64,000 nt of DNA from Escherichia coli (GTDB taxonomy: Bacteria > Pseudomonadota > Gammaproteobacteria > Enterobacterales > Enterobacteriaceae): NCBI RefSeq assembly GCF_003334355.1, contig NZ_QOWP01000017.1. One strand, 5' to 3'. The translations under genes and the position numbers were made by a program. The notes beneath the pieces are model-generated. The model had not been told where the DNA came from. It made no database searches and saw nothing but the letters and a program-made list of their open reading frames with translations. Positions 34,220-35,259 of this stretch are shown one piece after another (position 1 is the stretch's first letter; each line of letters starts with the position of its first letter).

Positions 34220-34231
34220 CTGATCTGAAAA

Positions 34232-34300
34232 TAGGGTGCGGGTTTTCCCCTCACCCTAACCCTCTCCCCAAAGGGGCGAGGGGACCGTCCGGTGCAGTTT
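34232..34300. repeat. GC-rich imperfect palindrome resembling a BoxC-type intergenic repeat
   Basis: gggtgcgggttttcccctcaccctaaccctctccccaaaggggcgaggggaccgtccggtgc; family name assigned from memory, not verified. Confidence 0.45.
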
Positions 34301-34332
34301 TTGGGTTTGACATCAGCCTCACGGGAGGCTGT

Positions 34333-35259
34333 ATGTCGTTAATTAAGGTGCCTTGTATGCAAATCACCAATATGCATTGCAGTGGACAGACCGTTTCACT
34401 TGCCGCGGGGGATTATCACGCGACCATTGTGACCGTCGGTGCTGGTCTGGCTGAATTAACCTTTCAGGGTTGTCATTTAGTCATCCCGCACAAACCCGAA
34501 GAGATGCCGCTGGCGCATCTGGGTAAAGTGCTTATTCCGTGGCCGAACCGGATCGCCAACGGCTGTTACCGCTATCAGGGGCAGGAATATCAGTTACCCA
34601 TTAATGAACATAGTTCAAAAGCCGCTATTCACGGGCTGCTTGCCTGGCGAGACTGGCAAATTAGTGAATTAACCGCCACCAGCGTTACCCTGACAGCTTT
34701 TCTGCCGCCCAGTTACGGCTATCCGTTTATGCTGGCTTCACAAGTTGTTTATTCGCTCAACGCACACACGGGTCTTTCCGTTGAGATCGCAAGCCAGAAT
34801 ATCGGCACTGTCGCAGCGCCTTATGGCGTGGGTATTCATCCTTATTTAACCTGCAACTTAACATCTGTTGATGAATATCTGTTCCAGCTTCCGGCAAACC
34901 AGGTTTATGCCGTCGATGAGCACGCGAATCCGACAACGCTTCACCACGTTGATGAGCTGGATTTAAATTTCACGCAGGCGAAAAAAATAGCCGCGACAAA
35001 AATCGACCACACCTTTAAAACCGCTAATGATTTGTGGGAAATGACCATTACCCATCCACAGCAGGCGCTTTCGGTAAGCCTTTGTTCCGATCAACTCTGG
35101 GTGCAGGTTTATAGCGGTGAAAAATTACAGCGTCAGGGACTGGCAGTTGAACCTATGAGTTGCCCGCCTAACGCCTTTAATTCAGGTATCGACTTATTAT
35201 TACTGGAATCAGGAAAACCGCACCGCCTGTTTTTTAATATTTACGGACAGAGAAAATAA
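34333..35259 (+). CDS. yihR: Aldose-1-epimerase-family protein (sulfoquinovose mutarotase)
   Basis: 308-aa ORF; strong SD gggagg 8 nt upstream. Confidence 0.9.
   Translation: MSLIKVPCMQITNMHCSGQTVSLAAGDYHATIVTVGAGLAELTFQGCHLVIPHKPEEMPLAHLGKVLIPWPNRIANGCYRYQGQEYQLPINEHSSKAAIHGLLAWRDWQISELTATSVTLTAFLPPSYGYPFMLASQVVYSLNAHTGLSVEIASQNIGTVAAPYGVGIHPYLTCNLTSVDEYLFQLPANQVYAVDEHANPTTLHHVDELDLNFTQAKKIAATKIDHTFKTANDLWEMTITHPQQALSVSLCSDQLWVQVYSGEKLQRQGLAVEPMSCPPNAFNSGIDLLLLESGKPHRLFFNIYGQRK

Follow-up and report, generated by a model that had tools for sequence, protein, structure and literature searches.

Intercistronic stem-loops can stabilise upstream mRNA segments, as the REP/BIME elements in malE-malF do. 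A dispersed GC-rich repeat has separately been described under the names BoxC (in the 1990s), PIT elements (Maher and co-workers, 2000), and TMECO (Holder et al., 2015; PMC4666352). The TMECO consensus is CCCTCNCCC-N3-6-GGGNGAGGG-N3-GGGNGAGGG, and type A and type B oligonucleotides have been studied by CD and NMR for the intrastrand triplex of the G-rich strand in vitro (PMC4666352). PIT elements stop DNA polymerase in vitro, with no stable triplex detected in vivo (PMC4666352), and BoxC/PIT was reported to have neither terminator nor promoter activity and no effect on RNA polymerase (Maher et al., ref. 41 as summarised in PMC4666352). One catalogued copy, TMECO no. 21, occupies MG1655 4,070,452-4,070,487, with 49 nt between it and yihR and 27 nt between it and yihS (PMC4666352; Holder et al., 2015); the flanking gene other than yihR is printed in the catalogue as 'yhiS', b3504, which is presumably yihS, the gene annotated at that MG1655 position.

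In the window, the 64-kb stretch of Escherichia coli DNA analysed here, the yihS-yihR interval is probably a composite of two unrelated things, a BoxC copy and an older hairpin (Table 1). There is little new biology in either part: the first is a catalogued BoxC/TMECO copy and the second an ordinary intercistronic stem-loop.

Table 1. Features of the yihS-yihR spacer, in window coordinates
Feature	Position	Strand	Basis
yihS stop codon TAA	34217-34219	+	yihS likewise ends here in MG1655 and, under PGAP, in E. coli strain E2865
BoxC repeat unit, about 56-63 bp	34234-34296	.	alignment of 13 paralogous type-A copies; empty-site alleles without the unit
TMECO/PIT intrastrand-triplex motif, 36 nt, type A with one mismatch	34247-34282	-	consensus regex
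3' extension GTTTTTGGGTTTGACATCAG common to a BoxC subfamily	34297-34316	.	fimH-gntP and alx copies, partly recX-recA
TTGACA, perfect -35-like hexamer at the BoxC/hairpin junction (speculative)	34307-34312	+	read from sequence
Intercistronic stem-loop, K-12-type form of the post-yihS hairpin	34309-34337	+	folding, 16 orthologous spacers
GGGAGG, Shine-Dalgarno look-alike, loop and 3'-arm sequence of the hairpin	34323-34328	+	sequence, allele comparison
ATG annotated as the start of yihR in MG1655 (308 aa)	34333-34335	+	within the conserved 3' arm
AAGGTG, conserved yihR Shine-Dalgarno, 6 nt before ATG 34357	34345-34350	+	
yihR coding region counted from the conserved ATG (300 aa, MQITNMHCSGQ...)	34357-35259	+	PGAP, protein cluster, tblastn

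The BoxC copy and its distribution

A sequence-only reading of the spacer had pointed to a GC-rich imperfect palindrome between yihS and yihR and to the possibility that it belongs to a repeat family. The palindrome is present (cccctcaccctaaccctctccccaaaggggcgagggga, 34247-34284) and is a catalogued copy of the BoxC/PIT/TMECO dispersed repeat, being a consensus match, multicopy, and the orthologue of TMECO no. 21. A repeat finder gave its arms as 34246-34256 and 34274-34284 (11 nt, 91% complementary), with a second pairing of 34232-34242 and 34248-34258. The unit runs in the order GGGTGCGGG-TTTT-CCCCTCACCC-TAA-CCCTCTCCCC-AAA-GGGGCGAGGGG-ACCGTCCGGTGCA, and in the alignment of type-A copies the similarity among paralogs spans from about GTGC.GG..TGTT to GACCGTCCG.GCAC. 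On the minus strand, the TMECO/PIT motif reads CCCTCGCCCCTTTGGGGAGAGGGTTAGGGTGAGGGG, and the consensus regex has a single match in the window, at 34248-34282 on that strand. Compared with Table 1 of PMC4666352, the motif is identical to TMECO nos. 7, 11, and 15 and one base off no. 21; the MG1655 spacer as a whole is 99.1% identical to that of the window, and the one base that differs, a single SNP, gives GGGAGAGGGG in MG1655 and GGGTGAGGGG in the window. Nos. 7, 11, and 15 belong to the type A mm class used in that study. Like the described family, the copy is intergenic and multicopy and has TTA as its second loop, the mark of type A (with one mismatch), and it shows no essential difference from that family; it also has the 5' G-block GGGTGCGGG, paired with the first C-block, and falls in a subfamily with a 3' extension of roughly 20 nt.

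Among 5135 E. coli genomes, the 116-nt spacer (34220-34335) used as a megablast query was found at a median of 8 and a maximum of 14 places per genome, and the exact 25-mer core of the palindrome, for which 0.00 chance matches are expected in the window, likewise has a median of 8 sites in E. coli genomes. The paralogs are intergenic and include fabI-ycjD, tauD-hemB, adk, aaeR-tldD, frlR-yhfS, zntA-tusA, pstB-pstA, yjdP-phnP, fimH-gntP, alx, trpS, and recX-recA; the copy near fabI in MG1655 has 97.8% identity over 46 nt, and paralog matches reach query position 270, which is window position 34319.

The yihS-yihR junction was present in 4001 of 5426 genomes and carried the BoxC allele in 2334 of these 4001 (about 58%), leaving about 1660 junction-bearing E. 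coli genomes (about 42%) without BoxC. Four no-BoxC E. coli alleles lack a 75-nt block corresponding to 34234-34308, and the no-BoxC spacers are 66-68 nt long. BoxC is also absent from E. whittamii, Salmonella, Citrobacter, and other relatives compared, and because these and the other E. coli alleles are without the element, it is taken as a derived insertion. The unit, together with the subfamily extension to about 34316, probably entered a single E. coli haplotype, immediately 5' of a hairpin that was already there. The junction between the two falls in GACAT-CAG, a sequence that resembles the subfamily ...TTTGTCATCAG and the ancestral ACGACATATCAG alike. The G-rich strand of the element, which can fold into the intrastrand triplex in vitro, is here the minus (template) strand. 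BoxC is most likely a passenger without a dedicated role in yih expression, and the two common E. coli spacer haplotypes, with and without it, offer a ready comparison for the effects of BoxC on the expression of neighbouring genes.

The stem-loop downstream of yihS

The second part of the spacer is a hairpin whose core, a 7-bp stem of cagcctc with gaggctg, had been read from the sequence and is perfect: CAGCCTC (34314-34320) pairs with GAGGCTG (34325-34331) around the loop ACGG. The pairing extends past a 1-nt bulge (U34332) by five further pairs, GACAU (34309-34313) with AUGUC (34333-34337), to a total of 12 bp. The predicted structure is strong: with 41 nt of context it has −19.1 kcal/mol and a z of −5.96, none of 200 shuffles folds as stably, and it ranks among the lowest 0.74% of all 41-nt windows in the 64 kb. 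The 126-nt spacer RNA folds into two strong adjacent hairpins (−59.8 kcal/mol, z −4.6). Chance would often give a perfect 7-bp stem, but not the extended hairpin or its conservation across genera.

This conservation was followed in 16 orthologous spacers from Escherichia, Salmonella, Citrobacter, Superficieibacter, and metagenome contigs; a genome-collection scan with YihR gave six loci, and further orthologues came from a protein search and contig look-ups. An equivalent hairpin folds in all 16, just past the yihS stop codon, and it sits 10-20 nt beyond this stop in Escherichia, Salmonella, Citrobacter, and Superficieibacter. The conserved arms are ACGGCAUAU...AUAUGCCGU, while the interior varies and the hairpin length (from ACG... 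to ...CGT) ranges from 28 to 38 nt; an A-rich stretch lies 5' of the hairpin, and in most spacers a U-rich GUUNUU tail lies 3' of it. The 9-bp outer helix is 97.1% paired over the 16 sequences, whereas slid controls pair at 19-50%. One of its pairs is G-C in 11 sequences, G.U in two, and A-U in two, and another is U-A in eight, U.G in three, and G-C in two, so that two pairs have changed on both sides, and the covariation score was matched by two of 500 shuffles. Covariation is modest, since the arms are mostly invariant. The segment 34309-34337 is the K-12-type form of an old, conserved stem-loop behind yihS. The arm sequence is more conserved than the structure alone needs, a possible sign of a specific binding partner.

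The hairpin was considered as a further dispersed repeat and rejected as such, as there is a single copy in each of 2335 genomes. Rfam covariance models run at permissive thresholds gave only chance-level matches (E above 3) in the window region and nothing relevant in seven orthologous loci.

Transcription across the spacer

Raw RNA-seq counts per gene are available for MG1655 grown on sulfoquinovose (PMC12608037, Table S3), and reads per kb computed from them are about 467 for yihS, about 156 for yihR, and about 338 for yihQ. The roughly 3-fold drop from yihS to yihR (two replicates, low raw counts) is compatible with the hairpin, BoxC, or mRNA decay alike. In the mRNA that runs from yihUTS into yihR, the most likely action of the hairpin would be that of a leaky intrinsic terminator and/or a barrier to 3'-to-5' exonucleases; in either case it would define where a yihUTS mRNA species has its 3' end and would lower the yihR message relative to that of yihS. 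A leaky terminator or an mRNA 3'-end barrier is probably its role after yihS, which makes the conserved hairpin a candidate boundary of the 'yihUTS operon' and a candidate cause of the lower yihR message.

The likeness to an intrinsic terminator lies in the A-rich 5' flank, the GC-rich base of the stem (ACGG/CCGU), and the GUUNUU tail, which is UUUUU in E. whittamii. It differs in that the U-tract is interrupted or missing, being replaced by the Shine-Dalgarno sequence in C. sedlakii and one metagenome relative, and in that loops are often longer than 8 nt. With an intrinsic terminator defined as a GC-rich stem with a loop of 3-8 nt followed at once by at least five U in 8 nt, a consensus scan gave no plus-strand site in the window spacer or in the E. 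whittamii or Salmonella orthologues; its one terminator-like hit fell on the minus strand, in an E. coli allele without BoxC. The earlier suggestion that the spacer attenuates read-through from yihS is in keeping with the read counts, but not with the terminator scan, nor, as far as BoxC itself is concerned, with the lack of terminator activity ascribed to BoxC/PIT in PMC4666352. The resemblance to REP/BIME-type elements is a stable hairpin past the upstream stop in a co-regulated cluster with less downstream mRNA; the yihS-yihR hairpin differs in not being a REP sequence and in its single copy per genome.

Part of the yihR message may arise in another way. An independent yihR promoter could lie in the spacer, possibly with TTGACA as its −35 element, so that the hairpin region would be mainly promoter or 5'-leader DNA, a possible but rather unlikely arrangement that is compatible with the composite of BoxC and hairpin preferred here. 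In its favour, sigma-70 RNA polymerase bound the yihS/R intergenic fragment in an in vitro band-shift, and with lactose, galactose, or glucose the yihR mRNA was reported to vary independently of yihS (PMC5816610); moreover, the hexamer is perfect, and a transcript starting near 34343 would keep the conserved Shine-Dalgarno sequence and ATG 34357 while losing ATG 34333. However, no −10 hexamer follows at 16-18 nt, a consensus promoter scan found none in the window spacer or in three orthologous spacers, and no-BoxC alleles have ACGACA or ACGGCA in place of TTGACA. On sulfoquinovose, the reads for yihR rise from 0 to about 145 (PMC12608037), which favours read-through from the yihU promoter.

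It is also improbable that BoxC itself terminates or pauses transcription, through its GC-rich RNA hairpins or through a triplex on the G-rich template strand. The two strong adjacent RNA hairpins, a T-rich stretch (GTTTTTGGGTTT) 13 nt downstream, the drop in reads between the genes, and the block to DNA polymerase by PIT elements in vitro (PMC4666352) would all fit such a role, but the reported properties of PIT include no promoter, terminator, or RNA polymerase effect (ref. 41 as cited in PMC4666352) and no stable triplex in vivo, no terminator-like site was scored in the spacer, and the element cannot be a conserved control point because it is absent from about 42% of junction-bearing E. 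coli genomes and from the other genera.

The start of yihR

In the preferred composite reading, yihR translation would begin at ATG 34357 from the AAGGTG just upstream of it. RefSeq/PGAP places the start there in E. coli strain E2865, whose DNA matches the 116-nt spacer query exactly, and the same start is annotated in other E. coli genomes examined; the representative of the 300-aa YihR cluster has 1755 members, and tblastn matches in other species start at residues 1-6 of the 300-aa protein. AAGGT is invariant in seven Escherichia alleles, and AAGGTG-N6-ATG (34345-34359), which also occurs in Salmonella, lies outside the hairpin, starting 8 nt 3' of it. A PDB sequence search with YihR, directed at the N-terminus, returned no matches. 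The MG1655 start (308 aa) is probably 8 codons too long and mis-annotated, which affects expression constructs and translational fusions of this sulfoquinovose mutarotase.

The sequence-only reading had taken GGGAGG as the yihR Shine-Dalgarno sequence, 8 nt before the ATG and masked by the stem, so that translation would depend on structure. The overlap with the stem is real, as GGGAGG (P(unpaired) 0.33) has its last four bases in the 3' arm, but the gap to ATG 34333 is 4 nt, and GGGAGG and this ATG are not the conserved initiation signals of yihR. Developed fully, the proposal is that the hairpin hides the true Shine-Dalgarno sequence and start of yihR and that YihR synthesis needs melting of the stem, for instance through ribosomes that end translation at yihS, through temperature, or through some factor; proposal and triggers together we regard as quite unlikely. 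They can draw on the 308-aa annotation in MG1655, on the strength of GGGAGG as a Shine-Dalgarno sequence, four of whose six bases are paired together with the AUG (P(unpaired) 0.016) in a −19 kcal/mol hairpin, and on ATG 34333 being in frame in the K-12-type allele. Among the 16 spacers, however, the hairpin ATG is in frame with yihR in this allele only; in 13 it is out of frame, preceding the conserved ATG by 28, 19, 16, or 43 nt, and in two, those of E. coli strain 20 (TATACC) and C. farmeri (CTGTGCC), it is absent, the 15 other spacers including the type carried by the about 1660 no-BoxC E. coli genomes. ATG 34333 is stem sequence within the conserved 3' arm (AUAUGCCGU / UAUGUCGU) of the ancestral hairpin, and GGGAGG is confined to BoxC-bearing alleles, being missing from no-BoxC alleles and from other genera. 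Opening 30 nt costs 17-18 kcal/mol around ATG 34333 against 8-11 kcal/mol around ATG 34357, and the yihS stop is 113 nt upstream, beyond the reach of ribosome-mediated unfolding. Counting against the preferred start, the conserved Shine-Dalgarno sequence is itself predicted only 26-35% unpaired in the K-12 allele.

The likeness to Shine-Dalgarno-sequestering hairpins and RNA thermometers such as ROSE and fourU is that an SD-like GGGAGG and an AUG are paired in a stable hairpin, but what is masked here is not the conserved start region of yihR, and no alternative structure or trigger is evident. A stem of about −19 kcal/mol is also probably more stable than thermometers of the melting type. The apparent ribosome-binding site in the hairpin is most likely a by-product of the mis-annotated yihR start.

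There is a slim chance that the stem-loop, whose arms scarcely vary between Salmonella and Escherichia, is a cis-regulatory RNA devoted to sulfoquinovose operons, for instance a site recognised by a protein for processing or attenuation, which would set the yihUTS:yihR ratio. BoxC could then have rewired it in the K-12 haplotype: the insertion removed the A-tract from the 5' flank of the hairpin and part of its 5' arm, and the BoxC allele shows an inner stem that is new and perfect, together with a strong Shine-Dalgarno sequence and an in-frame AUG. In combination, these changes could give a structure-gated, N-terminally extended YihR isoform in BoxC-bearing strains only.

Least probable is that the inverted repeat ACGGCATAT...ATATGCCGT works at the DNA level, as an operator bound by CsqR or another transcription factor, and not as an RNA hairpin, an idea for which the near invariance of the arms across genera around a variable interior would speak, exceeding the need of a plain hairpin, but against which stand the unfixed arm spacing, the compensatory and wobble changes that keep the pairing, the report of CsqR binding only at yihU/V and yihV/W (the literature searched gave no CsqR motif), and the lack of enrichment of the arm word ACGGCATATCAG, which with up to two mismatches has 5 matches in the window against 4.8 expected and none elsewhere in the yihU-yihQ region. 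A second exact copy of GCCTCACGGGAGG lies inside yihU at 31943-31955, with no similarity in its flanks, and is taken as a coincidence or an unexplained short patch.

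The palindrome and its repeat family

The sulfoquinovose (yih) cluster of E. coli lies on the + strand of the window, and its yihS-yihR spacer stretch (113 nt) differs by one base from that of MG1655 and is identical in many other strains (e.g., E2865, B-strain derivative). The GC-rich imperfect palindrome noticed here by the sequence-only reading is present, with arms complementary at 10 of 11 positions and a second pairing nearby, and its sequence was matched in 5135 of 5426 complete E. coli genomes, with a median of 8 and a maximum of 14 places in each, and is therefore a dispersed repeat. 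Its minus strand (CCCTCGCCCCTTTGGGGAGAGGGTTAGGGTGAGGGG) fits, by regular-expression match, the consensus for the E. coli triplex motif TMECO, CCCTCNCCC-N3-6-GGGNGAGGG-N3-GGGNGAGGG, a motif first named BoxC and later PIT element (Holder et al., 2015, PMC4666352). Table 1 of that study has 23 TMECO copies in MG1655, of which no. 21 (MG1655 4,070,452-4,070,487) is separated by 49 nt from yihR and by 27 nt from a neighbour that the supplement prints as 'yhiS' (b3504) (PMC4666352); the neighbour annotated there in MG1655 is yihS, and no. 21 is the locus of the window's palindrome, a copy that is already catalogued. Alignment of 13 type-A paralogs delimits the BoxC unit (~GTGC.GG..TGTT to GACCGTCCG.GCAC), in agreement with the 56 bp given for BoxC, and the copy in the MG1655 fabI-ycjD spacer is 97.8% identical over 46 nt. 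By every testable criterion, including consensus match and multicopy occurrence, the palindrome belongs to the BoxC/PIT/TMECO family.

Coordinates of features at the yihS-yihR-yihQ locus
Feature	Position	Strand
13-mer, second copy inside yihU	31943-31955	
yihS end	34219	+
yihS-yihR spacer stretch	34220-34332	
Second pairing in palindrome region	34232-34242 / 34248-34258	
BoxC unit	34234-34296	
Block separating filled and empty sites	34234-34308	
Palindrome	34247-34284	
Palindrome arms	34246-34256 / 34274-34284	
3' extension of BoxC	34297-34316	
TTGACA	34307-34312	
Conserved hairpin, K-12-type form	34309-34337	+
7-bp stem	34314-34320 / 34325-34331	
GGGAGG	34323-34328	
yihR start	34333 (MG1655 annotation) or 34357 (PGAP)	+
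yihR-yihQ spacer	35260-35457	
yihQ start	35458	+

The yihS-yihR junction was found in 4001 of 5426 genomes, and genomes without it have a short cassette lacking yihS and yihR or miss the region (PMC12608037). The spacer contains BoxC in 2334 genomes, including 2240 with the K-12-type form and 88 with a divergent form ('strain 20' type) in which BoxC is truncated, and ~1660 genomes have a 66-68 nt spacer without it; BoxC is also absent from E. whittamii, Salmonella, Citrobacter, Superficieibacter, and several metagenome relatives. Comparison of these alleles indicates that BoxC at yihS-yihR is a derived insertion. Filled and empty sites differ by a 75-nt block, flanked by the A-rich stretch that follows the yihS stop and by the downstream hairpin, and the exact breakpoint is not assignable because the right-hand junction lies within GACAT-CAG, which resembles the ancestral hairpin arm ACGACATATCAG as well as a subfamily 3' extension. 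This well-populated natural polymorphism, with and without BoxC beside a conserved hairpin, is a useful by-product of the analysis.

The subfamily, which includes the copies at yihS-yihR, fimH-gntP, and alx and, in part, the one at recX-recA, has a ~20-nt 3' extension ending ...TTTGTCATCAG. Past the canonical unit, an extension of the form ~TTTTTGA..TTTGTCATCAG is found in the window and at L021 (fimH-gntP), L020 (alx), L023 (recX-recA), and L034 (pstB-pstA), and in the window, fimH-gntP, alx, and recX-recA copies it is directly followed by a local hairpin. This pattern hints at BoxC insertion beside hairpins or terminators, or at microhomology joining. In the strain 20 haplotype (L005:471-589; 88 genomes), the truncated BoxC lacks the first C-block, its remainder forms a perfect 10-bp hairpin (CCCTCTCCCC-AAA-GGGGAGAGGG), and the downstream hairpin has a broken outer stem (TATACCG) followed by T7. 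The YihR encoded on a 2.9-kb contig labelled 'MAG: Bacillota bacterium' (L009) has 99% identity to that of E. coli, and the yihS-yihR spacer of this contig reads the same as the window's, BoxC copy included; mis-binning or contamination is very likely.

Structure and conservation of the hairpin after yihS

The 7-bp stem CAGCCTC/GAGGCTG proposed downstream of the palindrome is perfect, with an ACGG loop, and is lengthened by five pairs (GACAU/AUGUC) across a one-base bulge. Weak stability was not seen on folding: the hairpin reaches -19.1 kcal/mol (z = -5.96, 41-nt context), within the lowest 0.74% of 41-nt windows across 64 kb, and the whole spacer -59.8 kcal/mol (z = -4.6). The strongest 41-nt folds on the + strand of the window (near 51142, 10360, 53452, 52726, 59062, and 48172; -23 to -28 kcal/mol) all rank above it and are probably terminators or REP elements.

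A stem-loop occurs 10-20 nt after the yihS stop in 16 of 16 orthologous spacers, drawn from E. coli allele classes, E. whittamii, Salmonella, two Citrobacter species, Superficieibacter, and metagenome relatives (67-85% YihR identity), with arms ACGGCAUAU(C) and (G)AUAUGCCGU, a variable interior, and an overall length of 28-38 nt. In a MAFFT alignment of the 16 sequences, the nine outer pairs are 97.1% paired, against 19-50% in controls in which the 3' partner was shifted by 1-3 columns. One outer pair appears as G-C (11), G.U (2), or A-U (2) and another as U-A (8), U.G (3), or G-C (2); the observed covariation score was reached by only 2 of 500 column shuffles, and the mostly invariant arms keep covariation modest. 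The alignment clearly argues that the structure has been maintained across these relatives. In the K-12-type form the 3' arm (UAUGUCGU) is retained, the 5' arm is retained in part, and the inner stem is different and perfect. The hairpin is present once per genome, and searches of the window region and orthologous loci against Rfam families gave no match. The 13-mer GCCTCACGGGAGG, from which the K-12-type hairpin builds its loop and inner stem, has an exact second copy inside yihU (0.01 expected by chance), with no flanking similarity found. In E. coli alleles without BoxC (L006:486-507, minus strand), a T-run of at least 9 comes after the ancestral hairpin on the minus strand; the hairpin is terminator-like in this orientation only and could stop antisense transcription out of yihR.

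The start codon of yihR

It had been proposed that the hairpin sequesters a Shine-Dalgarno (SD) sequence 8 nt before the yihR ATG and makes translation structure-dependent. GGGAGG does overlap the 3' arm, and ATG 34333 is also paired, but the gap between them measures 4 nt. An AUG is found in the conserved 3' arm in most of the 16 spacers because the arm sequence is AUAUGCCGU; its distance to the conserved yihR ATG downstream is 28 nt in most Escherichia-like spacers and 19, 16, or 43 nt in others, all of them out of frame, and strain 20 (UAUACC) and C. farmeri (CUGUGCC) lack it. The K-12-type allele has a post-hairpin segment 4 nt shorter and is alone in placing the AUG in frame, 24 nt upstream. 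GGGAGG occurs only in BoxC-bearing alleles; AAGGT(G/A) followed by ATG 6-7 nt later is invariant in seven Escherichia alleles, and Salmonella has the same arrangement as AAGGTG-N6-ATG. PGAP starts yihR at 34357 (300 aa), also where the DNA matches the 116-nt spacer query (34220-34335) exactly, and uses the equivalent start in the other E. coli genomes examined. The 300-aa form represents a cluster of 1755 sequences, homologue lengths are 280-305 aa, and in more distant species the start lies five codons further downstream and the spacers are short and lack the hairpin; no solved YihR structure was found. Opening 30 nt is predicted thermodynamically to cost 17-18 kcal/mol around ATG 34333 vs 8-11 kcal/mol around ATG 34357. 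From this comparison we infer that the functional start is most likely ATG 34357, and the MG1655 annotation (308 aa) is probably 8 codons too long, a start-codon correction for K-12 yihR that is a second useful by-product. The proposed control is not supported, since the paired GGGAGG and ATG 34333 are not the conserved initiation site, and for the same reason the hairpin fails the key criterion of an SD-sequestering riboregulator.

The yihS-yihR boundary

The hairpin lies just after a stop codon, with an A-rich 5' flank, a GC-rich stem base, and a GUUNUU tail, and in position, flank, stem base, and tail it is built like a weak intrinsic terminator or 3'-end-protecting hairpin. It would act in the manner of an intercistronic stabiliser or leaky terminator, but scans of the window spacer, E. 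whittamii, and Salmonella gave no match to the strict terminator consensus on the coding strand. During growth of MG1655 on sulfoquinovose, reads per kb were ~467 for yihS, 156 for yihR, and 338 for yihQ (Table S3 raw counts divided by gene length, two replicates; PMC12608037). On lactose or galactose, yihR mRNA did not follow that of yihS, and RNA polymerase bound a yihS/R fragment in vitro (PMC5816610). A boundary at the spacer fits the yihS and yihR counts, the independent yihR mRNA, and the polymerase binding, and substantial read-through into yihR from upstream is implied. The best reading of the hairpin is as a leaky terminator or exonuclease barrier that would partition yihUTS from yihR, which we hold tentatively, at a little under even chances. 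An internal yihR promoter, possibly using TTGACA, is compatible with such a barrier, but a promoter scan gave no acceptable -10 after this motif.

Some attenuation of yihS read-through, as first suggested, fits the published counts, and termination is opposed by the unmatched strict consensus and by the statement of Holder et al. (2015) that PIT elements have no promoter or terminator activity and leave RNA polymerase unaffected (PMC4666352). TMECO copies have no consistent position relative to genes, and their stable triplex formed in vitro and was not seen in vivo (PMC4666352). BoxC at yihS-yihR is most likely a passenger. The combination of palindrome and hairpin is ordinary, because the former is a catalogued BoxC copy and the latter resembles a stabiliser or leaky terminator and fails as a riboregulator.

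Across the yihR-yihQ spacer (198 nt), reads per kb from the published raw counts are ~2.2-fold higher for yihQ than for yihR in sulfoquinovose growth, which suggests a separate yihQ promoter within it. In Salmonella, Citrobacter, Superficieibacter, and several metagenome relatives (L015, L018, L019, L024-L028), yihR is followed by a TauE/SafE-family (PF01925) membrane protein gene and not by yihQ, and the gene order is therefore unlike that of E. coli.
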